Below are positions 20,552-48,609 of a stretch of DNA of 64,000 bases, in pieces. Source of the stretch: an uncultured bacterium (GTDB lineage Bacteria; Armatimonadota; Hebobacteria; CAIYQO01); contig CAZWZF010000005.1 in assembly GCA_964638715.1 (NCBI GenBank), positions 37,824 through 101,823 on the forward strand, written 5' to 3'. The notes under the pieces are model-generated. The model was not told the origin of the DNA, ran no database searches, and worked only from the letters and a program-made list of their open reading frames with translations. The position numbers and the translations under genes are program-made. Each line of letters starts with the position of its first letter. The stretch's first letter is position 1.

Positions 20552-20852
20552 AGTTAATGTAATCACCAATCATTTGGGTTACCGTAATGGCCATGGTAAA
20601 AAACATGTTTTAGTCACAGATGTACCTGATGCGCGGAGTATATTTGGTGATTCTATATTCACTGTTTTTGAACAGAACAATTTTTCAAAATATGGACTAA
20701 ATGACCCTCGGCAGATTCCGCATATCCATCGCGCATCACTGAATCGCATTCACACTGATTTCCAGACAAGTCTAATTTTCATTATTAAAGTTTTTTGCGT
20801 ATTCTTGTCCTCAAATTATAGAGGTGAACAATCTTATGACACAGCTCTATGA
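20541..20852 (+). pseudogene. 5' stub of an operon gene (Ig-like N-terminus of a glycoside hydrolase?) cut off at the GC-rich block
   Basis: The start overlaps the upstream stop (ATGGAAGATAA). VITNHLGYRNGHGKKHVLV resembles the N-terminal Ig-like domain of GH9-type enzymes. Only about 60 plausible codons precede degeneration. Confidence 0.4.
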
Positions 20853-22380
20853 CGGTTGCGTCCCCATCATGACCCCTCCGCCGTTGAAGACGCCGCGCCT
20901 CAACGGAGCGCGTGTCGTCGGCGTTCGCTCCGGCAGCCCGTTCCTGCATGCACTTGCCGCCACGGGTGACCGTCCCATGACCTTCTCGGCGATTGGCTTG
21001 CCGACAGGCCTGCGTCTTGATTCCGTGACCGGGATTATCACCGGAACTGTGTCCACCCGCGGCGCCTGCGACGTGACTGTCGGTGCCGCCAACAGCCATG
21101 GAAAAACCGAGCGCACACTACGCATCATGGTCGGTGACGCAATATCGCTCACTCCGCCGATGGGTTTTAATACCTATGGCGGCTGGGGTCCCTTCGTCAC
21201 TGAGACCGATATCCGCGCTGGTGCACAAGCTCTGGTGAAGTCTGGCTTGAGCCAGCATGGTTACTGCTATGTGAATATTGACGATGGTTGGCAGGGCAGG
21301 CGCGGCGGTAAGGAGAATGCCATTCAGCCCAATGATAAGTTTGGCGATATGCGAAGTCTATGCGATGACCTGCACGCGCTCGGTTTCAAGGCTGGTATCT
21401 ATTCGACACCCTGGGCGAGTACCTATGAAGGATTCATCGGCGGCTCCAGCGACGCCGTTGATGGCGCGTGGATATCTCCTGATCCACCGCGTAGCGGCAT
21501 AGGTAAGTTTGGCAGTCACTGCTTCGCGATTGAGGATGCCAGGCAATGGGCGGCGTGGGGTTTTGACTACTGCAAGTATGACTGGGGTATCGACAGCTTA
21601 GCGCGTGCGCAATATATGCGCGATGCCCTTGACGCGACCGGGCGTGATTTTGTGTTGGAACTTTCCAATGCGGCACCGTTTGCGCAGGCCGCGGATTATA
21701 CTGCCATCGGCAACATGTGCCGTACCACGACTGATATCACCGATGTCTGGGACCGTAAACAGTTGCCGGCCAGTCAGCGCGATTTTGGGGCTATGGGAAT
21801 TTACGATATTTGGATGCGGCACCGCGATTGGGCTCCGTTTAATCGTCCCGGCCACTGGAACATGCCTTGCCCGCTGCGCGTCGGGTTACTCGGCGGTTGG
21901 GATCTCAAACCGCTGACTCCAACGCGTCTCACGCCGGCTGAGCAATACAGTCACATCAGCCTCTGGTGCTTGTGGTCGGCACCGCTCATCATCGGCTGTC
22001 CAGTCGAACGACTGGATTCCTTTACGCTTAGCCTGTTGAATAACGACGAGGTGCTGGACCTTGACCAGGATTCGCTGGGACAACAGGCACGCCAACTTGC
22101 CCCGGACTCGCCGGATATACTGGTGAAAGAGCTGTGGGACGGCAGCAAGGCAGTCGGACTGTTTAACACCAGCGACACGGAGGACGAGTTAACTGTTAGT
22201 TGGAGCGATTTGGGTATCACCGGACCGCACACTATACGAGATCTCTGGCGCCAAACCGATATTGGTGTCTCGGATACCCGCTTCTCTGCCCGTATCATGG
22301 CTCATGGAGTGGTGCTCATCCGGCTGAGCGACATTGACACAACGTCGGCAAAGCACGCCAACCCGGGGAGTTTCGCATGA
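20836..22380 (+). CDS. alpha-galactosidase (GH27) with N-terminal Ig-like domain; GC-rich
   Basis: PPMGFNTYGGWG...YVNIDDGWQ...GFKAGIYSTPW are GH27 motifs. GAGGTG lies 9 nt before the ATG at 20836. Confidence 0.8.
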   Translation: MTQLYDGCVPIMTPPPLKTPRLNGARVVGVRSGSPFLHALAATGDRPMTFSAIGLPTGLRLDSVTGIITGTVSTRGACDVTVGAANSHGKTERTLRIMVGDAISLTPPMGFNTYGGWGPFVTETDIRAGAQALVKSGLSQHGYCYVNIDDGWQGRRGGKENAIQPNDKFGDMRSLCDDLHALGFKAGIYSTPWASTYEGFIGGSSDAVDGAWISPDPPRSGIGKFGSHCFAIEDARQWAAWGFDYCKYDWGIDSLARAQYMRDALDATGRDFVLELSNAAPFAQAADYTAIGNMCRTTTDITDVWDRKQLPASQRDFGAMGIYDIWMRHRDWAPFNRPGHWNMPCPLRVGLLGGWDLKPLTPTRLTPAEQYSHISLWCLWSAPLIIGCPVERLDSFTLSLLNNDEVLDLDQDSLGQQARQLAPDSPDILVKELWDGSKAVGLFNTSDTEDELTVSWSDLGITGPHTIRDLWRQTDIGVSDTRFSARIMAHGVVLIRLSDIDTTSAKHANPGSFA

Positions 22381-23954
22381 AAAACGTCCTCGGCGTTTAT
22401 ACAGGGACAAGAACAAGGAAGTGTAGGATGTGCACAATTAGCAAGACAATGTCCGAAACTGTCTCCCTCGCTGCGGCGGCCGTGCGCGCCACCGAGCCGG
22501 TAGCGGCCACAGATCCGCTCCGGCCGCTGTTCCATTTCCGGCCGCCAGCGCAGTGGATGAACGACATCTGCGGCGCGCTCTGGCACGAGGGTTGGTATCA
22601 CATCTTCTACCAGTTCAACCCGTTCGCCGACCGTTGCGACTGGAGCTGTGTCAACGCCTGCTGGGGCCATGCCCGCAGCCGCGATCTCGTCCACTGGGAG
22701 CACCTGCCGATCGCCGTGGCGCCGTCGGTGGAGGAGGGCAACTACCAGTGCGCCAGCGGTTGCGCCACCCACCGGGATGACGGCACGCCGATGCTGTTCT
22801 ACGGCCACACGCCGCTGCCGCGCCCGGACGGGACGCGGCAGCCGCGCCAGCAGTGGGCGGCTCTGCCGCTTGACCCAGAGTTGCGCGCCTGGCGCACGCT
22901 CGACGTCGGTTTGGCACCGGGCCAAAGCGGCGTGCCCGCCGACATCGCCGGCTGCTGGACCGATATGTTCGTGTTCCGCGAAGCCGGCCGCACCTTTGCG
23001 ATTTTCAAGGAGGCCGGCGGTCTGGTGGTCGAGGCGCAGAACCCGGAGTTGACCCGTTGGCAGGCGGTCGGCCGCATCGATGGCGTCTTTGGCGAGTGCC
23101 CGAACTTTATCAAACTTCAGGATCGCTGGCTGCTGCTGCGTTCGACCTATCCGATGACGTACCAGGTCGGCCGGTTCGATCCTGAGCGCATCGCCTTCGA
23201 GATGGACGGCCCCGCCGGGATCGTGGACTACAGTTACGACCTGAACCCGCCGCCGGATCCGGGCGACCCCAATTACTACCTGGACGCCTCTGGCGTGCCG
23301 GTCTGCCGCTACGGCGCACCCTATCCGGCGCATGCGGACAGTCGCGGCTTCTACGCCACCAGCGTGTTTGCGGACTCCGCAGGCCGCACGCTCCTGCTCG
23401 CCTGGGTCGGTGCTTGGCCGGCGTCCCGCGGCTGGAACTGCTGCATGTCACTGCCGCGCGTGCTTTCCCTCGACGCGGTGGGGCGACTGGTGCAGCAGCC
23501 GATCCCGGAACTGGCCCGGTTGCGGGGCTTACCCGTCTTGGTCGGACCGCTCAATCTGAACGGCGAAGCCCGCCGCATCGAGGGGTTTTCGGGCGACACA
23601 CTGGAGGCCATGGCTGAGTTCGAACTGGGTGCCGCCGAAGCCGTCGAGTTGGCCCTGCGCGACGACACAGGTGCCGCTGCCGTGCGCATCCGCTACGATG
23701 GCCGGACGCTGGATGCCAACGGCACCGTGCTGCCGCGCGTGCTGGGCGACGACCCGCGCCGCCTCAAGCTGCACCTTTTCTACGACAAATCGGTGATGGA
23801 ACTGTTCGTCAACGACGGTATGCAGACTGTCACCCGCGTGGCCCTCCCGCCATCGCCCGCCCTGCATCTCGAAGCGGCGGCAACCGGCGGCGCGGCGACG
23901 CTGCGGGCACTGACGGTATGGCCGATCAAACCCTCCACGGAGATATGTCCATGA
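22377..23954 (+). CDS. GH32 beta-fructofuranosidase/levanase-like hydrolase; GC-rich
   Basis: WMNDICG (WMNDPNG-type), SRDLVHW (RDP-type) and FGECPNF (EC motif). ATGA overlap with the GH27 stop. The exact start is uncertain (22377, 22428 or 22449). Confidence 0.8.
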   Translation: MKNVLGVYTGTRTRKCRMCTISKTMSETVSLAAAAVRATEPVAATDPLRPLFHFRPPAQWMNDICGALWHEGWYHIFYQFNPFADRCDWSCVNACWGHARSRDLVHWEHLPIAVAPSVEEGNYQCASGCATHRDDGTPMLFYGHTPLPRPDGTRQPRQQWAALPLDPELRAWRTLDVGLAPGQSGVPADIAGCWTDMFVFREAGRTFAIFKEAGGLVVEAQNPELTRWQAVGRIDGVFGECPNFIKLQDRWLLLRSTYPMTYQVGRFDPERIAFEMDGPAGIVDYSYDLNPPPDPGDPNYYLDASGVPVCRYGAPYPAHADSRGFYATSVFADSAGRTLLLAWVGAWPASRGWNCCMSLPRVLSLDAVGRLVQQPIPELARLRGLPVLVGPLNLNGEARRIEGFSGDTLEAMAEFELGAAEAVELALRDDTGAAAVRIRYDGRTLDANGTVLPRVLGDDPRRLKLHLFYDKSVMELFVNDGMQTVTRVALPPSPALHLEAAATGGAATLRALTVWPIKPSTEICP

Positions 23955-24285
23955 CAACTTCCAACGCCTACGATGTGATTGTGCTTGGCGGCGGCACGGC
24001 CGGGGTGGTGGCCGCCATCCAGGCCGGGCGGGCCGGCGCGAAGTCACTGCTCGTCGAGAAGACCGGCATGCTCGGTGGCACCATGACCGTCGGCAGGGTC
24101 AACAACCCCGGCTTGTTCTTTGCCAGCACACGTCAGGTGATCGCCGGCATCGGCTGGGAAATGGTGATGCGCTGTCTCGCCGAGGCCGGGCAAGAACTGC
24201 CGGACGCGGCCAGAGACCCAGGCAAGCCCTTCTGGCAGCGCCACGTGCCGGTGGATCGTTTTCTTCTGCCGATGCTGCTTGTCGA
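23951..24285 (+). pseudogene. 5' fragment of a GC-rich FAD-dependent oxidoreductase, truncated at the composition break
   Basis: MTTSNAYDVIVLGGGTAGVVAAIQAGRAG dinucleotide-binding motif. ATGA overlap with the GH32 stop. Similarity and GC-richness end near 24285, and the ORF then runs into AT-rich DNA. Confidence 0.65.
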
Positions 24286-24373
24286 AGTGACTTTAAGCAA
24301 AAGTCCTGTATTAATTAATTTCTTTGATTTTCTTCCTGCTGGCTGGCGGGTTAAGCATCGTCCGATTTGTTGT

Positions 24374-24607
24374 TTAAGGGTTGTAACAATATCTGGTGTA
24401 CCAGTGGTAATCCCAAACTGAAACTGTTATACCAGTGCGCACCGGATTTCGTTCAATGTCTTTCAGCGCAATCCATGCGTGCTCTTCATCCATTGGCATC
24501 GAATAATACCGATTTTCCCACAAATGCCCCTACTATTTCTGACGGCGATTAGCATGGCGCGAATATTTCATGTGTGCATGACTTATAGCCTGTATTTTGT
24601 CCCTGTA
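24374..24607 (-). mobile_element. decayed remnant of an IS200/RAYT-type (Y1/HUH) transposase: C-terminal half only, with two in-frame stops
   Basis: The minus-strand frame reads IQAISHAHMKYSRHANRRQK**GHLWENRYYSMPMDEEHAWIALKDIERNPVRTGITVSVWDYHWYT. This matches the GxLWxxRfxS...YIexNPVRaGl...dYxWss pattern. TAG TAG sits at 24530-24535. Confidence 0.65.
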
Positions 24608-24629
24608 TTAGGAATCCGGTAATTTATGA

Positions 24630-24658
24630 TTGAATGATGAAGGTATGATTTGTATAAT
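24630..24658 (+). promoter_or_regulatory. sigma70 promoter TTGAAT-N17-TATAAT
   Basis: Hexamers at 24630-24635 and 24653-24658 with a 17-nt spacer. It lies about 75 nt upstream of the ATG at 24735. Confidence 0.55.
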
Positions 24659-24734
24659 AGGCTCATAAGATTTATCCAGAAATCGATGATTTATTAATGG
24701 CGGTTTCCGGCAGTAATAAAAAAAAGGAAGTGAT

Positions 24735-27146
24735 ATGAAACAGCGGAAAATCGATTCAATGATAGTTACCCGTGTGGAACAGACCGATAAATATTATGAT
24801 CTGGTGGTTTGTGGTGGCGGTATAGGCGGCGTTGTGACAGCGGTTATGGCTGCCCGTAAAGGATTGTCTGTCGCATTGGTTGATAATAAGGCGGGTTTGG
24901 GCGGCAACGCGTGCGCGGAGATAGGCGTCAATATAGATGGCGCCCATTGTTTTGGTTTTTTTGTTAACAAACGTGAGGGCGGACCGGTAGAGGAATTAAA
25001 GGAAAGGCTTGCTGCCATGGATCCCTATGGCGATCAGGGGATGAACAGTACAGTTATGCTTTTCTGGTGTATGGAATCAGGGGTGCATGTGTTCAGCGAA
25101 TTGCTGATAGATGAGGTTGCCGCCGAATCAAACCGTGTGATAATGGTAGCCGGTTCACAGGGGGGCACTGAAAGACGACTGGCATTCCATGCGGGGCAGT
25201 TTGTAGACGCCACCGGAGATGGTACTATTGCTGCTATGGCGAATGCGGAATATATGACAGGCCGTGAAAGCCGCGGAACGTTTGATGAAATACTTGCCCC
25301 GGAAAATGCTGATACCGGCATTATGGGGGCATCGTTATTGTACCGTGCCAGTGAAAAAAAGGAAGCCATTCCATTTGTCCGTCCGGAATGGGCATATGAA
25401 TATCGTACAGAAGATGATTTACCTTATCGTTTATCCATGCAGAAAGGTCCTGCTATATGTGGTTTCTGGTGGATAGAATACGCCGGCGACCATGATGACC
25501 CTATCGGTGAATATGAGCAGGTGCGGGTAGAATTATCGAAATGTTTATATGGTGCCTGGGCTTTTTTGAAAAATGACCCTTCAAGAGGAATGGAAAATTG
25601 GTCTCTTGACCGTGTTTCAATATCGCCTGCTAAAAGAGAAAGCCGTCGTGTTATTGGCGATATAGTGGTAAACGAGAAAGATATTGTGGGACGAACTGAG
25701 TTTAATGATGCTGTCGCTTATGTCGGATGGAATATTGATATTCATGTCCCCGGCGGTTTTAAATCGCGGTATAAGCCAAATATCCATGCCTTATTTCCAT
25801 GGGTTTCACCGTTGCCATTACGGGCATTGTATAGCCGTGATATTGAAAACCTGTGGCTTGTCGGTCGTGATATCAGTGTGTCGCATGTCGCGTTGGGTGC
25901 CACGCGTTTGCAGGCTACCATTGGCACCATGGGCCACGCCGTTGCCTGTGCGGCGGCAATCGCCCATCGCGGCGGTTTGACAAACCGTGAAACCGCGCGG
26001 CAGCAGATAAAGGCTATTCAGCAGGATATCCTGCGTGATGGTTCGCATATACCGGGAATCAGTAACCAGGATGACCGGGATTACGCGCGTCTGGCACAGT
26101 GTGTCGCTACCAGCGACCAGCCTTTACGTGTTACCGCTGGTGATTTCTTTATTCCGGTTGGCAATGGGCGGGCAGTATCATTCCCGGTGACGGGCGGAAC
26201 TGTTGATTCGATAACTATTAATCTCCGAAATCCCGGTACTATTCCAGTAGACGCGCGGTTATTCTTTTCCCCATGTATGCACCCCAACCACGCGTCTGAC
26301 CGGAACGTTCTGGCGGAAATGTCTTTACGTATAGAACCGGGGGAGCATAATATAAACTGGAAATTGAATCTGAATGATGTCGCCGTTGGGCTTTACGCGG
26401 TGGGAATCACCACTGATACATCGGTAAAGGTAAACTGGCAATGGCCGGGGCGTTCAGTTGTTCACGCCGATGATAATGGTTTCGCGGGTTTGGAATGGCG
26501 GGCCTGCAGTGATGTTCCGTATGGCTGCCATACCCTTGTTTTTGACCCGGATTATTATTATTTGCCAAAGGCGGATGTCAATGATAATCTGTATTTGGTG
26601 ACAAAACCAATTATGCTGGCGCCAATGGGGGAGGATACCAGTTGGATACGCGAGAAAAATCATCGTATGTGGCGTCCGCGTCAAATGAACAGGACAAAGA
26701 TTCCTGTCCCGGCTATTACCATAATTCCTGAACAACACCCATATACCGCGTCACAGGTAATAAGCGGTGTGTCGCATACTGATAATTTGCCGGGGTTATG
26801 GATTTCTGACCCGGATCAACCATTGCCGCAGAAAATAGAGTTAAATTGGGAACATGTGCATACTATTTCGGAAATCCGCATAGTGTTTGATACCGACACG
26901 GACATGTCGCACCCGGCGTACGAACCAATTGACACACTGGTGAAATCATACAGGGTGGATGCAAGTGTTGACGGCCGTTGGGTTGAGATTGTCCGTGAAG
27001 ATGATAATCGCGGACGCTTCCGGATTCATAAGTTTAATGCGGTTCAGGCCGACGCGTTGCGCCTGACAATCGAGAAAGTGCATGCCGGCGGCAAAAGCGC
27101 GCGGATTTTTGAGATTCGCGCGTATGGCATTGAAAATGCTGAATAA
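24735..27146 (+). CDS. FAD-dependent oxidoreductase (PF12831-like) with C-terminal discoidin (F5/8 type C) domain
   Basis: DLVVCGGGIGGVVTAVMAARKG motif. The C-terminal YRVDASVDGRWVEIV...ALRLTIEKVH...IFEIRAYG is discoidin-like. Confidence 0.7.
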   Translation: MKQRKIDSMIVTRVEQTDKYYDLVVCGGGIGGVVTAVMAARKGLSVALVDNKAGLGGNACAEIGVNIDGAHCFGFFVNKREGGPVEELKERLAAMDPYGDQGMNSTVMLFWCMESGVHVFSELLIDEVAAESNRVIMVAGSQGGTERRLAFHAGQFVDATGDGTIAAMANAEYMTGRESRGTFDEILAPENADTGIMGASLLYRASEKKEAIPFVRPEWAYEYRTEDDLPYRLSMQKGPAICGFWWIEYAGDHDDPIGEYEQVRVELSKCLYGAWAFLKNDPSRGMENWSLDRVSISPAKRESRRVIGDIVVNEKDIVGRTEFNDAVAYVGWNIDIHVPGGFKSRYKPNIHALFPWVSPLPLRALYSRDIENLWLVGRDISVSHVALGATRLQATIGTMGHAVACAAAIAHRGGLTNRETARQQIKAIQQDILRDGSHIPGISNQDDRDYARLAQCVATSDQPLRVTAGDFFIPVGNGRAVSFPVTGGTVDSITINLRNPGTIPVDARLFFSPCMHPNHASDRNVLAEMSLRIEPGEHNINWKLNLNDVAVGLYAVGITTDTSVKVNWQWPGRSVVHADDNGFAGLEWRACSDVPYGCHTLVFDPDYYYLPKADVNDNLYLVTKPIMLAPMGEDTSWIREKNHRMWRPRQMNRTKIPVPAITIIPEQHPYTASQVISGVSHTDNLPGLWISDPDQPLPQKIELNWEHVHTISEIRIVFDTDTDMSHPAYEPIDTLVKSYRVDASVDGRWVEIVREDDNRGRFRIHKFNAVQADALRLTIEKVHAGGKSARIFEIRAYGIENAE

Positions 27147-27182
27147 ACTAAATTAATACAACCTGTCCCTGTAATTCTAATT
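26968..27182 (+). repeat. copy 1 (in situ) of the oxidoreductase 3'-end repeat
   Basis: It covers the last ~180 nt of the CDS plus ~35 nt downstream, and recurs at 36170-36408 and 39455-39552. Confidence 0.9.
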
Positions 27183-27311
27183 TCTCAATCAAATTAGGCT
27201 GTTTTGAACATTTTCAATGGAGAAACAAATATGCGGCAGGGGAGACACAAAACGGTTGACACGCGGGTCAGGAGGAGTCTATTCTTATTGTTGTAATTTT
27301 ATGGTAAATAT

Positions 27312-27494
27312 ATGGGGTTTACCGAATACTTACCATTTTTAAAGGAGGTGTATCATCCAATCCGTCGTTCCGGTTTTACTCTCATCGAGTTGTTGGTCGT
27401 CATAGCTATGTTAGTTCTCTATCTTTCCTGTCAACAACGGCGGTGCCATAACCTTGAACGCGGCGGGTGTATATACCAGCAATTTCCGGGGTGA
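27312..27494 (+). pseudogene. leader-only stub of a prepilin-type gene
   Basis: [16 protein letters not shown] (about 27363-27410) after AAAGGAGG, then unrelated sequence and a stop. There is no H-X9-DG part. Confidence 0.55.
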
Positions 27495-27552
27495 TATCTC
27501 CTAATTGACAGTTTTGAATGTCACACCGCAGCAAAGAAAGGACCATCAAACT

Positions 27553-28449
27553 ATGAATATTTTAAACCATGCCCAATGGCTCCCGTTTTCACCCGGTAAT
27601 GATGATCACTTTTTCGTTGACACCTTCCCCAGTAACTACCCGTCACTGCCAGAATCTCTCTGTGCCGGGTGGGAAATTCGGACATCACCCAACTATCGTT
27701 ACTCAGGCCAAACCCGGGTGGGGCCAGTGGGAACAATCCAGTATACAGTGCGCGGAGAAGGTTGCCTCAGGTACAATAACAGAACTTATAAAGTATTGCC
27801 CGGACAGGCGTTTCTACTGGAATCCCCCGGTGATTATTTATACAACTTGCCGGATGAAGCACCTCTTTGGGAATTTATATTCCTGACATTTAATGGGGAG
27901 GACCTGCTCCAGCATTTTCGTCAGTTCATAACGACTCACGGACCAGTCATAACTCTTGACCCGGAGCATCCAATAGTTACACTGCTGCTGCAAATCGGTC
28001 AACGCATCGCAACCAAACAATTCAAAACAGCTGAAGACAGTGCGATATGGCTTTACCAAATGATGATGGAGTTACTGAAAGTAGCAAGTGCAGAAGCGTC
28101 ATATCCAACCTTAATACAATGCGTATTGCAACATCTGGCGCAACACTTCACCCGGGATATCAACGGCGAGGAACTCGCGGATATCGCCGGCATATCTTTG
28201 GCGCAGTTCTACCGTGTCTTCAAAACACATACCGGATATACACCCGGGCAGTATATCACTATGCAGCGTATGCGCCAGGCTTTGTATTATTTGCGCTATA
28301 CTCACCTGTCAATAGAGGAGATCGGCCGCCGGTGCGGTTTCAGCAGCGGGTGGCATCTGGGGAAAATCTGTCGAAAAGTGCTGGGACATTCCCCCAGTCA
28401 TTTTCGCCAAGCAGCAACTCTCCCCCCTGAATCCTGCTGGCGCATTTGA
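27553..28449 (+). CDS. AraC family transcriptional regulator
   Basis: C-terminal LAQFYRVFKTHTGYTPGQYITMQRMRQALYYL...IGRRCGFSSGWHLGKICRKVLGHSPSHFR double HTH. Start chosen at MNILNHAQ. Confidence 0.8.
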   Translation: MNILNHAQWLPFSPGNDDHFFVDTFPSNYPSLPESLCAGWEIRTSPNYRYSGQTRVGPVGTIQYTVRGEGCLRYNNRTYKVLPGQAFLLESPGDYLYNLPDEAPLWEFIFLTFNGEDLLQHFRQFITTHGPVITLDPEHPIVTLLLQIGQRIATKQFKTAEDSAIWLYQMMMELLKVASAEASYPTLIQCVLQHLAQHFTRDINGEELADIAGISLAQFYRVFKTHTGYTPGQYITMQRMRQALYYLRYTHLSIEEIGRRCGFSSGWHLGKICRKVLGHSPSHFRQAATLPPESCWRI

Positions 28450-28625
28450 AAAACTGACAATCTATAAAAAATGATACTGGCAGCAATGTGATTCCCATGA
28501 GAAAATTAGACCAGTAAAAAGCTATTATTAGCACTGTTAAAATCATCACAGTGGTGATATTATAATTTAACGGTGTCAACCATATCACAATATGACACCG
28601 TCAATACACCTTGAAGGAGGTTTTT

Positions 28626-29768
28626 ATGTGTAAACTTAAACGAGGGTTCACCCTCATCGAATTACTGGTCGTGATAGCCATAATTGCTATCCTCGCCGCG
28701 ATTCTGTTCCCCGTCTTCGCCCGTGCTCGAGAAAAGGCGCGGCAAACTACCTGCACGAACAACCAGCGACAATTAGCTGCATCTATGCAAATGTATGCTC
28801 AGGATCATGAAGAATTACTTCCATCATCCGCAACAATATGGCAGGATCTAAAAATAGAACCTCAGGTATTACAATGTCCTACAGCTGGAAAAAACTTAAC
28901 GGTGGCTTATGCTTATAACAACATCCTTTCCGGGATGTCACTCGGTAATGCGACTGATCCTACCTCGGTATGGCTTACTGTAGATGCTGATGACAGCAAA
29001 GCACCATCGTACCGCCATTCAGCAAAAACTTTATTAAGTTATCTTGACGGACATGTCGGGCAAAGAGATCCCGGGATAGTGGCGAAATACGTCGGCGCTG
29101 AACTTAACATGGTTGCATTCCGATCTACGGACATCGGGACGAAGTCATATACACTCCCGAATCATCCCAATGCATATGGGAGGGAAGGCTATATCATGTT
29201 CGGCACTGCCGGTGCGTCGGTGACACAGGAAGCCAGCGGCGATTTTACCGGAACAATCTATACCGGCACCCGGTCGGGCACAAATTTCAACAATCCAGCC
29301 ATCGGCATCGCTTCTATCGCTATCCTCGGGACCGGGCAAGGAGGCAGTGGAGGACCCAGCGTCAATGGCCGTTGGCGCAGTGATAACGGAAGCGCCGGCG
29401 GGAATCTGGACGATGCGTCGCGGGGTATCGGCCCATCGGTCCCTGACGTCGTGAACGGCACTTTCTGGTACCGATGGAATGGCGAAACTTCCCTTGATTT
29501 GCTGAAAATCACGCTTTCCGCCGATATGGTGCCCACCACACTTCGTATCGGTATCATCACCGACCGCGGAGACAGCCAGAAACCGGGAGCGATCGGTGTG
29601 GGCAATAACAGGAAGAATAGGTTAGGCGCGAACAGCTACGGCTCCCCGGATCTGTACTTCTTCGATTTGACAGGGTTGCCGGGAGACACAGCCCCGATTT
29701 CGATGACACCCTATGCTGCCGGGCAGTGGGGCACGGCTATTCGCGGGCTGGTCTTTGATACCCAATAG
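28626..29768 (+). CDS. prepilin-type H-X9-DG protein with a distinct, GC-richer C-terminal module
   Basis: AAGGAGG then the ATG at 28626. [47 protein letters not shown]9-DG motif [12 protein letters not shown]. Confidence 0.85.
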
Positions 29769-29800
29769 CCCGTGTCCTTCGTGAAGCAAATAAAGTTGTG

Positions 29801-39435: not shown

Positions 39436-39454
39436 AACGCAGTGACAATACAGA

Positions 39455-39552
39455 GACAGGTCATACATTAACCATCGTTGACGGCCATTGGATTGAGATT
39501 GTCAGTGAAGATGATAATCGCAGACGGTCTCGGATTCATAGGTTTAATGCGG
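39455..39552 (+). repeat. copy 3 (truncated, more diverged) of the oxidoreductase 3'-end repeat
   Basis: It shares the 5' boundary AGGTNATNCATTAACCANCGTTGACGGCC with copy 2. About 14 mismatches in ~98 nt. Homology ends at 39552. Confidence 0.8.
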
Positions 39553-40480: not shown

Positions 40481-40580
40481 GCGGCATTGCTCCCTTTTAT
40501 GAGCGGTATAGATTTCTCGCTTAGCAATTCGCTGCCGCCGTGCCCGAGTCCCGTTTCACCAGGACCCGGGCGGGGTTGCG

Positions 40581-43500
40581 TCAGGGCGCCATGGTGGCCA
40601 TTCCCCACAGTTTGGGCTCCGGCATGATTTCGCCGGGGACGTCGTTGACCAGGCCGGTGGCCTTGTTGGCCCAATACATGCGCAGCGCCCGGTTCGTGCC
40701 GGTGGCGTCGGAGAAGATCACGCCGAGATCGAGCTTGTAGCTCTTGCCCGGCTGCGGGTCGAAGCCCAGGGTCTTCAGCGGCATGGCGGCCTCAACGGTG
40801 TAGCCGTTGCCGCGGCGGTTGATGGTCACTGTGGCATCGGTGAGCACCTGCACATCCTCCACCGTGTAATTACGCCAGGGGCAGGTGAAGGTCTGCGGGT
40901 GTTTCACGCCGGCCGTCTTCCAGCGGTAGAGCACCACCGCCGGCTTGCCGTCCAGCACCGAGATAAGCAGACGCAGATCGCCCGGCACGGCCTCCCCGCG
41001 CTTGGCGGCGCCGTCGGGATTCGTCCCAAGCTGCAGGTCCACCGAGTCGCCGGTGACGAAGAGCTGGGTGACATCCTTGCCGCCGTTGACCATCGGGTTG
41101 GCGTCGCCATTCACGTCGTAGGCCAGGTAGAGACTGGTGCCATCAGTAGCCACGGCGCCGCGGGCGCTGGAGTTGCCGGCGCTCCAGGACACAATTGATT
41201 CTTTAGCGTATTTATCCAGCTTACCGTCGAGTTTTGCCGGCGTCGCGATGCGGGAGATGGTCAGCACATTTGCCACTGCCTTCGCCGCCGCCCGTTCCTT
41301 TTGCAGCTTCTCCGCGGCAACCAGATCCTTGCCTGTAATTTTAACAGTTGCGGTCGGGATAGTCTGTAACTTGTCAAAGCCGTTAAGCTTAATCAGGTTG
41401 TAATTGCCACCGCCGGCAATGAGGTAATATTCATTCGTAGCCTTAGCCTTAAAGAAGTAACCACCAAACCATTCACCACCCATTGTTACGCCACCGAGTG
41501 GGGAGCCGGCCCTTGGGTCGTTGGGCCAGGCGTCAGGGCCAATGCGGCAATCCTGAAAGACATTCCCCAGTAGTAACCCGTCAGTAGTCATGATGTAAAG
41601 CCGGCCCATGTTGGATCCCATGGCGAATGCTTTGCCCACTGGCGTCTCCGCCGTGCCGATGCAACTAAGAGTGCCGTAGAGGCGGTCGTCACGGTCAGGG
41701 ATAGGCGCGAGGTGCGAGCCGTGCACGTCATTGAACATGTCCGGCCCGTAACTCCAGAGCGTGGTGCCGTCGTCAGCCAGGCAGGTGATTGGCGTGCCGA
41801 CGATTACCTTGCCGCCGCCGGCACAGTAGATCTTGACCGGGTGTTCGCCGGCCTTGCCAACCGTGCGAAGTTGCGCCAAGTCCCAAGTAGGCACACCGGC
41901 AGTGGTCCAACCCTTGAGCGGCACAGTATTCACCTCCGGGGCGGCGGTGTAGATGTTAAACTTATCGTCCAGCCAATAGCCGCCCCAGTAGCCGAGTCCC
42001 AGGGTCGCGGTGGTGGTCTGGCACTCCTCGGCCTGCATCTGGCCGTCGTCATTGAGATCGCTCCAGACAAAACTAAAACTGATATTCTTGTTGGCGTCTT
42101 TTGGCGGGGTCAGCGGCAGTTTGCGCTTCTCACCCCAATGATCCTGGACAGCGCCTTCAGCGGTCAGCCGAACTCCTGATCCCATTTCCGCGACCTTAAC
42201 CAGGGCGTCACCACGGCGCTGATAGAGCTCACCGCGCTTGCTCATGATATACTCACGGCCGTTGATCTTCAGCAGTTCACCGTTAATGTTGTCATCGATG
42301 AGGTTCGCGATTACCGTGGCCTTGTTCGTTGCATAGTCGAGTTTGAACTCGCAGCCGTTGCCGAAAACCCGCGTCTTGTCGTCCGGATCAACACAGGCGC
42401 CCATACCACCATAGGTGGTGGGACCGATGAAGTCGGTCACTAAATTACCATCGGCACCCCATACGCTGAAGCGCTTGGGGTACATCGTCTCTTCAGCCAC
42501 CCAGAGTCGGCCTTTCGGATCGATGGCGATACCATTAGGGTTGCGCATGCCCCCGGCTACCCATTTTCCTGGCAACGGCCGGCCACCGGCCACGCCGACG
42601 ACATGGTCGAAGACGCCAACAGCGGTGAAGACCTTCACCTGTTGCGGACCGCGGTCGGCAACATAGATTCTACCCTGGGCGTCCAGCGCCAGCCCCATTG
42701 GCTTTTCAAGGTTGGAAGTAATCAACGGCGTCACCTTGCCGTCCGCAATCTTTACCACGCTTTGCCCGGAGACGGCGAAGAGCGTACCGGCTTTGTCGTA
42801 GGCCAGGCCACCCGGCGCCGCCAGTTTCACTTCGCCCTGCGGCTGCATCGTCTCTTTATTGAAGAAACGCACCACATCCGGACCGACCAACGTCACCGCC
42901 AGCCGATCAGCAGAGACCGCCAGACCGCCTATCGTCGCCTTCTCCTCCGCAATGGTCACCTTCACCATCAACTGCGGCTCCGGCTGGGTGGCGAACGGCG
43001 CGTATTTCCCGTCGGTCAGCAGCAGGCGGCCAACGCTCGTATCATTGACACCCCATCCATGACCGCCGTTCATGCCGGCGTAGGCGTAGCGGTCATCAAC
43101 AGCGACGGCGGCGATTCCCTGGAACTTGGACTCGCCCCATTTGCGCCGGCCGTTAAGGTCGGCGCCGACCAGCGCCCGGCCGCTTTCGCACCCGATTGCA
43201 GCAAGAAGCATCATATCTTTGCCCGCGGCCACGGCCACGTTGGGGTTGTGATCGCTCATCCAGCCGCCGGTCCCGTCGCCGGTCTCCCATGGCGGCACAC
43301 CCGGCGAACCATATCCAACCTCATAGACAGGATCGATACCTGCGTGCAGCAGGCCGCGCATTGTGTATTTACCAGGCGGCATCAGTTTACCCTGGTCATC
43401 GGTACCGTCCCACAAATCGGTTTGCTTGCCCTTAGCGCGCGGAGCCATGCCGATAACGTTCTTCACGCGGTGTCCCTGAGCGTCGTCAACTACCAGTGTG

Positions 43501-44423
43501 GCAAACCCGTCGAAGGGCATGGTGTATTTCAGCTTCACCGGCCCCTGCGTCTTCTGCAAGTACTCGGTCGAGGCGGCGTATTGCACGACCGGCAGTTTCA
43601 GATTCCCCTTCGGCTCCAGCGTCACCGGCCCCCAGTCATTTATCGCCGTCCAGAAGAATTCTCGGCTGCTTTTGCCCGGCATCAGCAGGTCGGCGTAGCG
43701 GTGAATGGGGAAGGTACGGCCATCGGGTGGTCCCCATAGAAATTCCATACCCATGTTAAATGTATCGCCGGGGCCGTAACTCTTCGGGGCCTTGTATGGC
43801 TTGCCAGTGGCTTTGACAATGGCGCTCTGACCGGTGATGAGCTTCCACGGCAGCGCAATCTCCTGAGTATAACCCTTGCCGTCTTCGCCCATCATGAAGG
43901 CTTCCTGCGCCCCCACCTTGACCGCATCGCTGATGTATTGGAAGGCGTTGACGTCATTCTCCTTGTCGCGTCCGCCGGAGAAAACTCCGTATGAGATGTT
44001 CACCACCGAATGCTTGGCGGCGGTGGAGTACCAGCAGGTGACATCGCTGATCGCCATGTCGGTTTTCAGCCGCAACTGCAGGCAGTCGCTCTTCCAGCCG
44101 CTGCCAATGTCGAAATTGGAGTCGACCATATTATACATCGGCGTCGGGTCGCGCCAGATGATGGACAGGTAGAAATTCTCCTTGTCGTACATGGCGGCGA
44201 CCTTGGTCGAGTAGTTGTTACGCGTCCTGAAGTTGGCGAAGACGTCGATCTGCCCGGACAGATCCCAGTCGTTCACCTTACCGTCAATGACGACTTTGCC
44301 AGGCGTCGGTACGGCGTGCAGCGCGTTGTTGTTCGTCTGCTGGGCTATTACCGGTATACATAGACCGGCGAAACAAAGCAGGACCAGAAAACCAATAATT
44401 TTTCTGTTAATGAATGATTTCAT
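40581..44423 (-). CDS. giant secreted protein homologous over its full length to 30027-33959; GC-rich
   Basis: Signal peptide. VVIDGKVNDWDLSG...YDKENFYLS. GKQTDLWDGTDDQGKLMPPGKYT. NHL-like GRIYVADRGPQQVKVF. C-terminal LQLGTNPDG...GDLRLLISVLDGKPAVV aligns with the other copy. RBS AAGGGAG. Confidence 0.7.
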   Translation of the reverse strand: MKSFINRKIIGFLVLLCFAGLCIPVIAQQTNNNALHAVPTPGKVVIDGKVNDWDLSGQIDVFANFRTRNNYSTKVAAMYDKENFYLSIIWRDPTPMYNMVDSNFDIGSGWKSDCLQLRLKTDMAISDVTCWYSTAAKHSVVNISYGVFSGGRDKENDVNAFQYISDAVKVGAQEAFMMGEDGKGYTQEIALPWKLITGQSAIVKATGKPYKAPKSYGPGDTFNMGMEFLWGPPDGRTFPIHRYADLLMPGKSSREFFWTAINDWGPVTLEPKGNLKLPVVQYAASTEYLQKTQGPVKLKYTMPFDGFATLVVDDAQGHRVKNVIGMAPRAKGKQTDLWDGTDDQGKLMPPGKYTMRGLLHAGIDPVYEVGYGSPGVPPWETGDGTGGWMSDHNPNVAVAAGKDMMLLAAIGCESGRALVGADLNGRRKWGESKFQGIAAVAVDDRYAYAGMNGGHGWGVNDTSVGRLLLTDGKYAPFATQPEPQLMVKVTIAEEKATIGGLAVSADRLAVTLVGPDVVRFFNKETMQPQGEVKLAAPGGLAYDKAGTLFAVSGQSVVKIADGKVTPLITSNLEKPMGLALDAQGRIYVADRGPQQVKVFTAVGVFDHVVGVAGGRPLPGKWVAGGMRNPNGIAIDPKGRLWVAEETMYPKRFSVWGADGNLVTDFIGPTTYGGMGACVDPDDKTRVFGNGCEFKLDYATNKATVIANLIDDNINGELLKINGREYIMSKRGELYQRRGDALVKVAEMGSGVRLTAEGAVQDHWGEKRKLPLTPPKDANKNISFSFVWSDLNDDGQMQAEECQTTTATLGLGYWGGYWLDDKFNIYTAAPEVNTVPLKGWTTAGVPTWDLAQLRTVGKAGEHPVKIYCAGGGKVIVGTPITCLADDGTTLWSYGPDMFNDVHGSHLAPIPDRDDRLYGTLSCIGTAETPVGKAFAMGSNMGRLYIMTTDGLLLGNVFQDCRIGPDAWPNDPRAGSPLGGVTMGGEWFGGYFFKAKATNEYYLIAGGGNYNLIKLNGFDKLQTIPTATVKITGKDLVAAEKLQKERAAAKAVANVLTISRIATPAKLDGKLDKYAKESIVSWSAGNSSARGAVATDGTSLYLAYDVNGDANPMVNGGKDVTQLFVTGDSVDLQLGTNPDGAAKRGEAVPGDLRLLISVLDGKPAVVLYRWKTAGVKHPQTFTCPWRNYTVEDVQVLTDATVTINRRGNGYTVEAAMPLKTLGFDPQPGKSYKLDLGVIFSDATGTNRALRMYWANKATGLVNDVPGEIMPEPKLWGMATMAP

Positions 44424-44490
44424 TAAAGTTTCTCCCTTTATTAACTATATTTTTAACACTACAATGTAGTGCCAATTACCAGTTATTGGA

Positions 44491-44511
44491 TAACAAACAG
44501 GATGTTTGTTA
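44491..44511. promoter_or_regulatory. candidate operator palindrome TAACAAAC-aggat-GTTTGTTA upstream of the giant minus-strand gene
   Basis: 8-bp perfect arms, about 70-90 nt upstream of the start at 44423. Confidence 0.3.
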
Positions 44512-44783
44512 ATACTTTTACATCAATGCTGTTTCAATTATAAAACAATTCTGTTGTATCAGACAACTATATTATTACAAAGTTATTCTAATTTTGTAAA
44601 AAAATTGCATTAAATAATATTTTCTCTTATTTTTTTAATGCTGTAAATATATTTGTACTGAATAAAACTATATAATTGATCGCCACATTATCTTTATCAA
44701 TACTTTTTTGTGTAATTATTCAGACTCGTCAGTTATAAGAAATTAAACTTAATTTGTTTAGCCGCAGCGCGGCGATATATTAA

Positions 44784-44950
44784 CGACCCCAGCGTTCACA
44801 TATTTGTAGAAAACAATTCATCATGAGATTTTCGACCCCAGAGTGGGTCGTATATAATTACCGACAATCTGCTATGTTATATGCGACCCACTCTGTGGTC
44901 GAATAACTTTTAAAGACTTTTTCTACAAATATTTGACCCCTGGGGTCACG
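44784..44950. repeat. composite nested palindrome built from REP-like hairpin units
   Basis: Inner 27-nt inverted pair at 44831-44857 / 44877-44903 (2 mismatches). Outer 14-bp perfect pair ATATTTGTAGAAAA / TTTTCTACAAATAT at 44800-44813 / 44919-44932. Flanking GACCCC...GGGGTC units. Confidence 0.8.
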
Positions 44951-44980
44951 AGGAAAATAAAAGATATATTTTAACAGCCT

Positions 44981-45100
44981 CTTGCAAAACCTTGCGACAC
45001 CCGATGGGACAGACACTCTCATGGCTTCGCCACTCGGTGTCAGTCCCTGATTTATACTCAAAACTTCAATTTGAAACAATAAAAAATCAGGTTTTGCAAG
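44981..45100. other. unclassified structured element: 12-bp perfect terminal inverted repeat enclosing a long hairpin
   Basis: CTTGCAAAACCT (44981-44992) pairs with AGGTTTTGCAAG (45089-45100). Internal hairpin GGGACAGACAC...GTGTCAGTCCC at 45006-45047. Confidence 0.4.
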
Positions 45101-45159
45101 AACCTATTAAATAAGTCTGACGAAACTGAGTAGTTATTTTTTATTTTTTTGCAATTATA

Positions 45160-45188
45160 TTGACAACTATCCGTGATACAACTATAAT
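45160..45188 (+). promoter_or_regulatory. perfect consensus sigma70 promoter TTGACA-N17-TATAAT
   Basis: Hexamers at 45160-45165 and 45183-45188. It lies about 58 nt upstream of the regulator ATG. Confidence 0.65.
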
Positions 45189-45246
45189 AAGTCAGTTGCA
45201 TCATTAATTTATAACATCGCCTGTCAAAGGTTAATATAAAATTGTA

Positions 45247-46513: not shown

Positions 46514-47545
<1,032 letters not shown>

Positions 47546-47631: not shown

Positions 47632-47760
47632 ATCGAAAAAATTAACCTTACAGGAGAAATGACCATGAACCAAAATCCCACCACACCTTCACAAACCATC
47701 ACTCTCGACGGCTTGGTTGGATGGCACCGTGGACTGCTCAGGAGACACGTATCGACAGTC

Positions 47761-48609
47761 ATGGGTAGATGGCTTGGAATCCTCGGCTTGGCAATGGTTT
47801 TCGCCGCACCACTCACGGGGGCGGCCGGTGAGATCAGCATCCGGAGCGGCGACAGTATCGCCTTCCTCGGCGACTCTATCACAGCGGGCGGCTGGGAGCA
47901 TCCCTATGGCTATGTGCGCCTCGTCTTGCTGGCGCTGGAGCAAGAGGGGGTGAAAGCCACCCCGATTCCGGCCGGAGTGTCCGGTGACACCTCGGAACGC
48001 ATGCTCAAACGCCTCGACGGCGTCCTGGCCACGAAGCCCACCTGGCTGACCTTGAGTTGCGGCTTCAATGACGTCTCTCCATACTGCGCCTGGAATGTAG
48101 GGTTCGAAGACTTTACGAAGAATGTGACCGCCATTCTCGACAAGTCGCAGGCCGCCGGCGTCAAGGTGATCATCCTCACGCCAACGCTGTACAGGGATAC
48201 CGATCCGGACAACGAGACCAACCAGAAGGCTGCCCCCTACGTGGAGTTCCTCCGGCAAACAGCCAGAGAACGCAAGCTGCCTCTCGCCGACATCAACACC
48301 GCGCACCGCGCGGAAATCGCGCGGCTCAAGAGCGAAAACTCCCCTTGGAAATCCTTGTTGTACGACGGCATCCACATGGGTCCGCAAGGCGACCAGATGA
48401 TGGCCGCCTGCGTTCTGAAAACCCTGGGGCTCACCGACGAGCAGATCGCCAAGGCCAAGGAGACATGGCGGAACAATGTGCCGATTGCGGCGATAAATGC
48501 ATCACTGCTTGCCCGTCATCCGCCATTAAAAAAGATATCATTAGTCTATATCTTGAAGGCTGCAAATACAGTTTCAACAAAATTGACAGAAAAGCATGCG
48601 ATTGGGTGA
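47761..48609 (+). CDS. SGNH/GDSL hydrolase, GC-rich, with a non-native AT-rich 3' tail
   Basis: Signal-like MGRWLGILGLAMVFAAPLTG. Block I FLGDSITAG and block V DGIHMGPQG. After ...KETWR (about 48470) the frame continues into unrelated low-GC sequence. Confidence 0.65.
   Translation: MGRWLGILGLAMVFAAPLTGAAGEISIRSGDSIAFLGDSITAGGWEHPYGYVRLVLLALEQEGVKATPIPAGVSGDTSERMLKRLDGVLATKPTWLTLSCGFNDVSPYCAWNVGFEDFTKNVTAILDKSQAAGVKVIILTPTLYRDTDPDNETNQKAAPYVEFLRQTARERKLPLADINTAHRAEIARLKSENSPWKSLLYDGIHMGPQGDQMMAACVLKTLGLTDEQIAKAKETWRNNVPIAAINASLLARHPPLKKISLVYILKAANTVSTKLTEKHAIG

Follow-up and report, generated by a model that had tools for sequence, protein, structure and literature searches.

GC-rich gene blocks joined inside the reading frames of an AT-rich glycan-degradation locus: probable serial capture of foreign DNA

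The window analysed here is a stretch of 64 kb of contig CAZWZF010000005.1, from an uncultured bacterium, and it raises a simple question: how does DNA of two very different base compositions come to alternate along one contig, with several of the switches inside open reading frames (ORFs)? The original prediction had left the choice between repeated recent insertion of foreign glycan-degradation cassettes and a chimeric assembly. According to the Pfam matches of its ORFs (some were also compared with NCBIfam), the entire window is a glycan-degradation region. It is likely that at least four pieces of DNA of 60–68% GC entered this AT-rich gene cluster by serial capture and re-exchange, through illegitimate and homologous recombination. 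The insertion of foreign cassettes is supported by intact host genes in relatives, by homologs in GC-rich contigs, by a microhomology and by a breakpoint between lineages.

The G+C content of the whole window is 49.1%. The backbone (the left 20.8 kb, the region from 24.3 to 30.1 kb and most of the right third) has 40–47% G+C and a G+C content at third codon positions (GC3) of 0.33–0.47, versus 0.57–0.68 and 0.64–0.84, respectively, in four blocks. The first and second codon positions (GC1 and GC2) shift too, and the backbone has a GC skew of +0.1 to +0.2, the blocks one of about 0. By recursive likelihood-ratio segmentation, the composition changes at 20850, 22464, 24254, 30103, 36079, 39593, 44345 and 45309, with statistics of 41–547, against a null of block-shuffled backbone whose 95th percentile is 20 and maximum 31. 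Block 4 (47700–48469) has 0.61 G+C versus 0.40 in its flanks (chi-square p = 7e-24). The segmentation bears out the four blocks first drawn by eye, whose coordinates lie within about 75 nt of the change points, and the spot counts given with them are exact (29/60 G+C at position 1, 20/60 at 9421, 46/60 at 33001). Block 2 starts inside an ORF at about 30095 instead of at a start codon, and block 4 starts at about 47632. The GH38 gene and the genes at 27.5–29.8 kb are intermediate, as described (GC 0.53 and GC3 0.61 for GH38, GC3 0.50–0.54 for the AraC and DUF1559 genes). Spacers within the blocks have 0.59–0.61 GC, akin to donor intergenic DNA (0.51–0.61), and in front of each block's first gene the DNA has 0.28–0.40 GC.

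Tetranucleotide z-score profiles, in which lower-order composition is corrected for, separate the same parts. Backbone segments correlate with AT-rich relatives at 0.57–0.84. Blocks 1–3 correlate among themselves at 0.51–0.64 and with the backbone at only 0.22–0.42; their correlation is 0.48–0.62 with a GC-rich contig, L005, and 0.36–0.59 with contigs of 64–67% GC labelled Planctomycetota or Pirellulales, to which the backbone correlates at only 0.06–0.37. Uniform composition, named beforehand as the observation that speaks against a mosaic, is not seen: GC, GC3 and tetranucleotide signature all differ between blocks and backbone. All five junctions placed inside ORFs by the original prediction hold with refined coordinates, and two more lie inside ORFs, at codon 23 of a 1310-aa gene (30095) and at about codon 24–26 of a 1280-aa gene (about 44345–44354).

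The AT-rich relatives were found by a scan of GTDB genomes with the 1279-aa backbone protein. One of them, L006, is uniformly AT-rich (42% GC) and about 85–88% identical in nucleotide sequence to the backbone. Two others, L007 and L015, have 44% GC, are 82–94% identical and bear the label 'Armatimonadota bacterium' of a metagenome-assembled genome (MAG) from Lake Mendota. The best named hits of the LeuC-like backbone protein are in Armatimonadota (80% and 71%), then in Firmicutes at about 70%, with no Planctomycetota among the named hits. On these comparisons, the host is most likely a low-GC (about 43–46%) freshwater bacterium of the Armatimonadota.

Both sides of block 1 illustrate how host and foreign genes are cut. 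The features of this region are the following.

20541–20852, plus strand: stub of a GH9-family gene, 103 aa, of which only the first 74 codons or so are homologous to the intact gene (homology ends at 20761–20763)
20762–20835, plus strand: leader of 74 nt, 30% GC, with a ribosome-binding site, before the alpha-galactosidase gene (from the sequence)
20836–24285, plus strand: GC-rich block 1, GC3 0.64–0.82, gene ends overlapping (Pfam)
20836–22380, plus strand: alpha-galactosidase (Melibiase_2, Pfam), GC 0.57, GC3 0.64
22428–23954, plus strand: GH32 beta-fructofuranosidase (Pfam)
23951 to about 24285, plus strand: FAD-dependent oxidoreductase, 5' third only (positions 1–77 of the 416 of the Pfam FAD_oxidored profile)
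24286–24734, no strand: AT-rich spacer, which gives the truncated oxidoreductase its out-of-frame tail and stop (24421)
24735–27146, plus strand: 803-aa FAD oxidoreductase of host composition, which has an F5/8 type C domain (Pfam)

L006 is collinear with the window up to 20761–20763 and then carries an intact 567-aa Glyco_hydro_9 gene, which follows a URO-D gene and whose N-terminus matches the stub, and an SDR gene. At this junction (junction 1), about 3.7 kb stand in place of some 2.3 kb of host DNA, as present in L006. The state of the window is the derived one, because a fragment cannot be ancestral to an intact gene; the backbone gene at 20541 is indeed reduced to a stub, as had been proposed. 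The 74-nt leader has no match in any related locus. At the other end (junction 2), the oxidoreductase gene runs into AT-rich DNA at about 24285 and gains a 45-codon tail, which agrees with the earlier description of a GC-rich oxidoreductase cut at this point. Inside block 1, a second composition step lies at 22464 (the GH32 gene and the oxidoreductase part have 0.68 GC and a GC3 of 0.82), and the only part homologous to L005 is the GH32 gene, so that block 1 may be a composite in its own right.

Some observations concern the oxidoreductase genes and the spacer. L006 (4555–6166) and L007 (3110–4544) have an extra gene for a 437-aa FAD-dependent oxidoreductase between the 1279-aa gene and the fucosidase gene, which is missing from the window (equivalent positions 18405 to 18465). 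By eye, the truncated oxidoreductase of block 1 resembles this 437-aa type rather than the 803-aa host gene. A metagenome scan with the 803-aa protein gave one close contig and three distant homologs. Two elements of the spacer, at 24303–24405 and 24511–24587, are present in L006 with 85% identity, separate and in the opposite order (13284–13386 and 10808–10883); judging from these matches, they are dispersed repeats of the host clade. By eye, a minus-strand ORF of 49 aa (24374–24523) could pass for a RAYT/IS200-type transposase C-terminus; neither Pfam nor NCBIfam gave a match even at a relaxed E-value, and the idea was discarded.

Block 4 provides the second junction for which both parental states are available.

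47632–48468, plus strand: GC-rich block 4, about 0.84 kb, a short leader and a 3'-truncated SGNH/GDSL hydrolase gene (homology to L028 and L025–L027)
48464–48469, plus strand: crossover of junction 8, where donor and recipient types share 5 nt of microhomology, ATGGC, at 48465–48469 (three-way alignments)
48464–48827, plus strand: remnant of an Fe-S protein gene (last 110 codons or so and 33 nt), 97% identical to L024 1673–2036

Homology to GC-rich SGNH genes ends at 48469–48473, and homology to the Fe-S gene of L024, a contig of a sister lineage, begins at 48464. In the three-way alignment, the donor type reads GAGAAATGGC followed by TGG, the recipient type reads CCGGCATGGC followed by GGAACAA, and the overlap is ATGGC; the recipient-type match also includes the C at 48464 (CATGGC). 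In L024 (44% GC, 97% identical), the Fe-S gene is intact and encodes a 655-aa protein similar to reductive dehalogenases and QueG. The SGNH hydrolase keeps 268 of the approximately 356 residues of its closest homolog, and its ORF continues for 46 out-of-frame codons in the Fe-S remnant, up to a stop at 48609. The fusion of the SGNH gene to a fragment of an Fe-S gene, previously located at about 48470, is thus confirmed, with the crossover at 48464–48469. The first 27 nt or so of the AT-rich leader of block 4 arrived with the donor fragment. The Fe-S remnant loses its homology to L024 on the right side too, so that the region underwent more than one rearrangement. A 314-aa variant of the SGNH protein was considered as strain variation at junction 8, and proved to be the same protein with another start call.

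As to the origin of the GC-rich DNA, the comparison of best hits per block, which the original prediction had called for, points to uniformly GC-rich contigs for the GH32 and SGNH genes. The GH32 gene is 91.7% identical, without gaps, to the DNA of L005, which has 64% GC across 12.4 kb; the match (22442–23931) stops at the gene borders. The SGNH block is 89.7% identical to L028 (65% GC) over 47632–48473, and 83.9% identical to L025–L027 (60–63% GC) over 47739–48469. Contig L025 also encodes PSCyt1/PSCyt2/PSD1 and DUF1501 proteins, which are hallmark Planctomycetota families. From these homologs, the donors are probably high-GC bacteria of the Planctomycetota. Transfer from Planctomycetota-like donors to an Armatimonadota-like host is the most economical reading of the sequence comparisons, and both labels are provisional.

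Block 2 can be compared with the same cassette in a sister lineage.

27505–28449, plus strand: host-type AraC regulator (Pfam)
28611–29768, plus strand: host-type DUF1559/prepilin-like protein (Pfam)
29769–30094, plus strand: AT-rich leader (GC 0.40) with an operator-like palindrome, a ribosome-binding site and the first 22 codons (signal peptide, by inspection) of the 1310-aa gene
about 29925–29960 (plus strand), 44551–44583 (minus strand) and L022 2058–2090: operator-like motif (sequence comparison)
30095–36141, plus strand: GC-rich block 2, GC3 0.83–0.84, with the body of the 1310-aa gene, a donor-like spacer (0.59 GC) and the 692-aa gene

According to Pfam, the 1310-aa protein has CBM9, FlgD-Ig and beta-propeller domains and the 692-aa protein a GH101-type beta-sandwich. 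Two sister contigs, L022 and L023, from two Lake Mendota samples and identical to each other, carry the same cassette (AraC, DUF1559, giant protein, GH101C-like protein) with the same compositional step. In the AT-rich DNA, the window and the sister lineage are nearly identical: the AraC gene has 98.9% nucleotide identity and a synonymous divergence (dS) of 0.025, the DUF1559 gene 97–99% and a dS of 0.075, and the Fe-S remnant, compared with L024, 97% and a dS of 0.06. In the GC-rich DNA, the 1310-aa gene has only 86.3% identity and a dS of 0.48, and the 692-aa gene 83.6% and a dS of 0.50. Both genes have a ratio of nonsynonymous to synonymous divergence (dN/dS) of 0.15–0.24, which indicates that they are functional and under purifying selection.

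Between 29954 and 30094, over the proximal leader, the ribosome-binding site and the first 22 codons, the two sequences are identical; they diverge continuously from 30095. This jump in dS, from about 0.03–0.08 to about 0.5, coincides with the compositional junction (change point 30103), just past the signal peptide of the 1310-aa ORF. Thus, the step from AT-rich to GC-rich DNA lies in the ORF and parts DNA of different histories. At the right end of block 2 (junction 4), the sister homology of the 692-aa gene ends at 36141–36147. The sister ORF stops at a TGA that is absent from the window, where the ORF reads nine codons past that position and takes its stop from the next segment (36149–36151). 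The low-GC tail that had been attributed to the 692-aa protein from about 36100 is therefore real, with its breakpoint at 36141–36147.

A motif of about 33 nt with the palindrome GTTGTCTGATACAAC is found upstream of both GC-rich giant genes of the window and of the 1318-aa gene of the sister; its variant in the leader of the 1310-aa gene is GTTATCTGACACAAC. It looks like an operator, to judge from its sequence and position. The copy at about 29925–29960 lies within a hypervariable patch (29854–29953), which has 31 differences from the sister inside otherwise identical DNA. In the sister lineage, a 71-aa ORF follows the 671-aa gene (L022 8281–8525, L023 9219–9463). The beginning of the 671/692-aa gene recurs in the first codons of this ORF and in the region upstream of it (81–83% identity to window 34071–34158), and by this match the ORF is an orphan fragment of a GC-rich gene. 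The DUF1559 gene at 28611–29768 has a GC3 of 0.24–0.5 in its first half and 0.6–0.76 in the second, and its 5' 178 nt are 84% identical to a paralog at 46532–46708; it may be an older intragenic mosaic.

How old are the blocks? The original prediction spoke of recent insertions. This is right for junctions 1 and 8, which postdate the split from lineages with intact genes (97% identical in the case of junction 8); block 2 and its left junction are common to the window and the sister, so that they are older or were re-exchanged. The G+C contents of the captured genes equal those of their GC-rich homologs (0.679 versus 0.684 for GH32, 0.610 versus 0.610 for SGNH), and the differences between them are symmetric in direction: changes from G or C to A or T (S to W) and the reverse number 53 versus 45 in GH32 and 43 versus 43 in SGNH. 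The GC3 of the blocks (0.71–0.84) is at the top of the range of the genes of donor-like contigs (0.68–0.85). Taken together, these values show no sign of amelioration.

Two explanations of the pattern in block 2 were considered. In the one we favour from the sequence comparisons, the sister is a close relative, and one of the two lineages would have swapped its GC-rich gene bodies by homologous recombination with a GC-rich pool; the left limit of the exchange would be pinned at the junction because homology with the DNA of that pool ends there. Alternatively, the mosaic could be old and vertically inherited: the blocks would have diverged at the rate of the clade, and the AT-rich flanks would have been homogenised recently by gene flow among AT-rich relatives. 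For the GC-rich genes, the dS that separates the window from L023 (0.48–0.50) is indeed near that of the backbone relative to L006 (0.55–0.61), the position of the AT-to-GC junction is common to both lineages, and L022 and the cousin MAG bin191 originate from one sample. Against this, all three AT-rich segments of the sister, on two contigs, are 97–99% identical to the window, and the segments of the cousin MAGs are all at 82–94%. Moreover, a dS of about 0.25 per lineage in a host of 43% GC should lead to amelioration, which is seen neither in block 2 (GC3 0.83–0.87) nor in GH32 and SGNH, and the lineage of the window demonstrably has the derived state at junctions 1 and 8. The absence of GC3 decay and the lower identity of the cousin MAGs favour the recent swap, and the old mosaic is an unlikely alternative. 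No overlap was found that would link the sister contigs L022–L024 to the cousin MAG contigs L006, L007 and L015.

Further to the right, remnants of a host gene separate the cassettes.

36142–36408, plus strand: remnant 2 of the 3' end of an F5/8C-domain gene, 91–94% identical to 26964–27181, which gives the 692-aa gene its last codons and stop
36532–39435, plus strand: GH38 alpha-mannosidase, bracketed by remnants 2 and 3
39443–39552, plus strand: remnant 3 of the same F5/8C 3' end; its left breakpoint is that of remnant 2, and on the right block 3 cuts it off at about 39552
39553–44345, minus strand: GC-rich block 3, with the URO-D-like gene, a donor-like spacer (0.61 GC) and the body of the 1280-aa gene
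39536–40480, minus strand: URO-D-like gene (Pfam)
40581–44423, minus strand: 1280-aa gene, whose product is a 30%-identical paralog of the 1310-aa protein (protein comparison)
44346–44423, minus strand: first 25 codons or so of the 1280-aa gene (signal peptide), AT-rich, GC3 0.36 (change point 44345)
44424–45246, no strand: divergent regulatory gap of 823 nt, 31% GC, which holds the operator-like motif at 44551–44583 and a hairpin

The first copy of the repeat (26936–27181) is the 3' end of the 803-aa F5/8C gene. Translated in frame, remnants 2 and 3 read ...SVDGRWVEIVR.DDNRGRFRIHKFN... They begin at the same point, directly after the stop of the preceding gene, and are therefore copies of one fragment that was already truncated. 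A tandem duplication was envisaged for the spacing of 9225 nt between the repeats at 26964 and 36189, and discarded: only the repeat of about 220 nt is shared, and nothing beyond it. The URO-D-like gene was said to borrow its end from a repeat fragment; indeed, the remnant that ends at 39552 supplies, by its reverse complement, the last 5–6 codons (PALNL) and the stop.

The 1280-aa gene mirrors the 1310-aa gene, with an AT-rich signal-peptide start and a composition step inside the ORF. A homolog that is 92% identical to the 1280-aa protein (P0149) aligns over residues 24–1280 only. Between this gene and a gene for a GntR-type regulator lies a near-perfect hairpin of 167 nt (44785–44947), with a folding energy of −79.7 kcal/mol and a z-score of −13.9 relative to shuffled sequences. 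It has no copy in any related locus and, from its fold, could be a miniature inverted-repeat transposable element (MITE), a regulatory structure or a pair of terminators.

What the captured pieces have in common is that all encode carbohydrate-active or accessory enzymes and that they join host DNA at arbitrary points, often within genes. Truncation affects host genes (GH9, the QueG/reductive-dehalogenase-like Fe-S gene, F5/8C-domain genes) and foreign ones (FAD oxidoreductase, SGNH hydrolase), and the new ORF ends are taken from the sequence that adjoins each junction. In both giant foreign genes, the body is joined in frame to an AT-rich leader of host type that carries the palindrome and the first 22–25 codons or so, with the signal peptide. 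Homology breaks abruptly at 20761, 36141 and 39552. The left limit of block 2 has the aspect of a homologous crossover, with identity up to 30094 and graded divergence thereafter.

Serial capture and re-exchange could proceed as follows. The primary capture would occur by illegitimate, microhomology-mediated recombination of incoming linear DNA. Once resident, a foreign gene body would be a homologous landing pad for later imports or allele swaps, whose left limit the compositional junction would fix. Among the host sequences, two sets of paralogous segments, the F5/8C 3' ends (91–94% identical) and the conserved 5' ends of the DUF1559 genes (72–85%), are candidate anchors and may serve as such, as in homology-facilitated illegitimate recombination (HFIR), and successive replacements would have left the 3' remnants. 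As the blocks appear to be essentially promoterless, their retention was probably selected when genes landed behind host regulatory leaders and, for the giant secreted proteins, through in-frame fusion to a host-type signal peptide. The structure suggests that such fusions make compositionally alien genes usable. No dedicated mobile-element machinery appears to be involved.

A stronger version of this mechanism is that the locus is a recombinase-free platform for cassette exchange. The host leaders (operator and signal peptide) would be fixed 'sockets', resident foreign bodies and paralogous segments would be the anchors, and Planctomycetota bodies of mature proteins would be swapped in repeatedly and in frame. 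This version is unlikely. If it were true, it would amount to a systematic route of renewal between phyla for secreted glycan-degrading enzymes, and would explain the lack of amelioration.

The mosaic represents a known phenomenon, the horizontal acquisition of DNA by a glycan gene cluster, and it can be compared with several systems. Genomic islands, in the sense of Lawrence and Ochman, are horizontally acquired regions of atypical composition. The window resembles them in its deviating G+C, GC3, oligonucleotide signature and GC skew, its accessory genes, their absence from a relative and the nearby tRNA. It differs from them in having at least four small blocks (0.84–6 kb) among host genes, no integrase, no direct repeats of a tRNA end, and junctions inside ORFs on the host and the foreign side. 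Relatives with an uninterrupted site are L006 for block 1 and L024 for junction 8. The polysaccharide utilisation loci (PULs) of Bacteroidota acquire carbohydrate-active enzyme (CAZyme) genes by horizontal transfer, the porphyranase genes of gut Bacteroides being an example. Glycan-degradation genes gained in this way by regulated glycan clusters are common to both. However, the window has no SusC/SusD pair and no evident integrative and conjugative element or transposon as a vector, and each of its cassettes has an AraC- or GntR-type regulator and a DUF1559 prepilin-like protein. Integron cassettes are also largely promoterless coding units behind a resident leader, and in the window a repeat follows two cassettes at an identical breakpoint. 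Unlike in integrons, no IntI integrase was found in the window, and the repeated element, in three copies only, is the in-frame 3' end of a host gene and not an attC site; the repeat search gave no attC-like inverted repeat there, no dedicated attC model being used.

HFIR of linear foreign DNA is defined in PMC3240628, which describes it in three naturally competent species and in the conjugation of E. coli. The window shares with it a junction with a microhomology of a few nucleotides (ATGGC), truncated genes, replacement (2.3 kb by 3.7 kb) and, in block 2, one side of the homologous-crossover type (smooth, with no indel) and the other with an abrupt break. It differs in that the process is deduced from sequence only, that no homologous anchor was found for the primary captures, and that donor and recipient apparently belong to different phyla. 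The window fits the testable features of a product of illegitimate recombination, and the anchor requirement of HFIR is partly supported. In the T6SS (type VI secretion system) clusters of V. cholerae, effector-immunity modules are displaced sequentially, a process termed HFIR in PMC5361080. The similarity lies in new modules behind a conserved upstream segment and orphan 3' remnants downstream. The differences are that the window carries glycan enzymes, that its remnants come from one type of host F5/8C gene and that the G+C gap is of 20 points.

Could a dedicated mobile element, such as an integrative island at a tRNA-Thr gene, a transposon, integron-like cassettes or a phage, have produced the mosaic instead? 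One feature is relevant here.

49586–49662, minus strand: tRNA-Thr(TGT), about 0.8 kb past the right end of the mosaic

The proximity of this tRNA gene, the repeated element of about 110–270 nt with one left breakpoint after two cassettes, and the short repeated intergenic elements at 24.3–24.6 kb all fit a mobile element. However, no window ORF of at least 100 aa has an integrase, transposase, relaxase or IntI domain in Pfam, and the 49-aa ORF matches no family. Neither 30-nt end of the tRNA gene has a second copy in the window with up to 5 mismatches allowed, and similarity of the window to plasmids or phages was not found. Instead of an att site, the repeat represents a host gene's 3' end, in frame, and the blocks are separate, each with its own junctions, instead of forming one island. 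A mobile element is thus very improbable.

The possibility that a metagenome assembly joined contigs of AT-rich and GC-rich organisms, in which case the mosaic would not be biological, had to be taken seriously: the source is evidently metagenome-assembled, k141-type contigs carry the same sequence, eight composition switches within 28 kb are suspicious at first sight, and the contigs of one sample end inside GC-rich blocks (24126, about 31250). Matching contigs of three other datasets were retrieved through exact-protein look-ups. In ENA, contig k141_959856 of ERZ27300137 corresponds to window 14735–46982, and contigs k141_395938 and k141_267624 of ERZ27299977 to 24126–31250 and 31244–54423, respectively; the JGI contig Ga0194053_10037069 (L018) corresponds to 23778–25975. 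All are 100% identical and ungapped, and taken together they cover every junction. The ORFs of the 103-aa stub and of the truncated oxidoreductase are on record in 4–5 contigs (five for the stub) from four sources (NCBI, JGI/IMG, Logan and ENA). For the latter it is the 156-aa version that is recorded, since gene callers place the start later; an exact look-up of the 167-aa version gave nothing.

Two arguments do not depend on the independence of these assemblies, which carry the same strain. The sister lineage, which is 1–3% diverged in AT-rich DNA, has its AT-to-GC step at the same codon. At junction 8, the donor-type and recipient-type sequences share only 5 nt, far below any assembler k-mer, so that a k-mer graph could not have joined them there without spanning reads; similarly, no repeat longer than 5 nt was found at 20761, 24285 or 44345. 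In addition, diverged gene remnants (86–94%) and in-frame fusions are not products of assemblers. The chimeric assembly that the original prediction had kept as an alternative is rejected, as other assemblies reproduce every junction at 100% identity, and we regard it as hardly credible. Judged from the assembled contigs, misassembly is excluded and the window is a genuine stretch of chromosome.

Finally, the idea that the GC-rich genes are native and owe their composition to codon-usage selection or biased gene conversion can be practically dismissed: although these ORFs are intact, under purifying selection and behind host-type leaders with a common operator-like motif, the steps are abrupt (within tens of nt) and run through ORFs, the spacers of the blocks are GC-rich as well, tetranucleotide signature and GC skew change too, homologs with 84–92% DNA identity exist in uniformly GC-rich genomes, and L006 has other genes in place of block 1.

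Several points nevertheless weigh against serial capture and re-exchange between the two phyla. No homologous anchor was found for the primary insertions, blocks 1 and 4 among them, and microhomology is documented at one junction only (48465–48469), the others offering a single parental sequence for comparison. The phylum of the host rests on one housekeeping gene and one MAG label, and the label 'Planctomycetota' of the donors on MAG labels and on hallmark genes that lie nearby in one contig. The donor-type sequences found do not exceed 92% identity, so that the true donors are unsampled. The other assemblies carry the identical strain, possibly from one study or site, and count as replicate assemblies, not as independent populations. 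Block 2 and its left junction, also present in the sister, have been resident in the clade for some time, and the lack of GC3 decay in block 2 fits a long residence poorly unless replacement from the GC-rich pool is recurrent.

Nothing in this mosaic contradicts current understanding. What goes beyond routine is the density of unameliorated blocks, the apparent direction between phyla, the availability of both parental states for two junctions, and the coincidence of compositional step, signal-peptide boundary and recombination breakpoint. The locus is an unusually clean natural record of the entry of foreign genes without mobile-element machinery, and it shows that sharp GC mosaics within MAG contigs should not be thrown out automatically as chimeras. 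If the labels of host and donors hold, there would be a recurrent flow of secreted CAZyme genes from Planctomycetota to Armatimonadota in freshwater lakes.

The enzymes encoded in the window are MGH1-like, GHL6, AXE1, SASA, GH123_N-like, fucosidase, URO-D-like, alpha-galactosidase, GH32, FAD oxidoreductases, GH38, GH57 and SGNH, and the regulators are of the AraC and GntR/LacI types. There are six DUF1559/prepilin-like proteins, and the 5' ends of their genes (about 200 nt) are 72–85% identical to one another; the number of these prepilin-like proteins does not speak for natural competence. TonB-dependent receptor and SusD domains are absent from the window according to Pfam, and a scan of the window with Rfam gave nothing but the tRNA. 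The two URO-D-like genes are distant (29% identity over 97 aa). The 1279-aa backbone protein was considered as a paralog of the GC-rich giant proteins, but BLASTP detects no similarity, and it is a GH123_N-like protein. The right end carries housekeeping genes (beta-CASP RNase, LeuC-like, phosphoglucosamine-mutase-like and tRNA-Thr).

In the backbone, the DUF1559 gene at 1412 and the GH123_N-like gene at 14562 each have a 41-nt motif upstream (1301–1341 and 14442–14482, 85% identical), which is probably a promoter or operator shared by the two operons. Arrays of heptamers of the AATTGAC/AATTGTC type, at 53706–53780 and 58716–58912, form inverted repeats about 5 kb apart. They bracket the beta-CASP RNase gene and a 947-aa gene (54102–56945) of intermediate GC (GC3 0.59), which has no Pfam or NCBIfam match. 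One contig of the sister lineage terminates close to the second array, some 385 nt upstream of LeuC, and the arrays may mark another cassette boundary.

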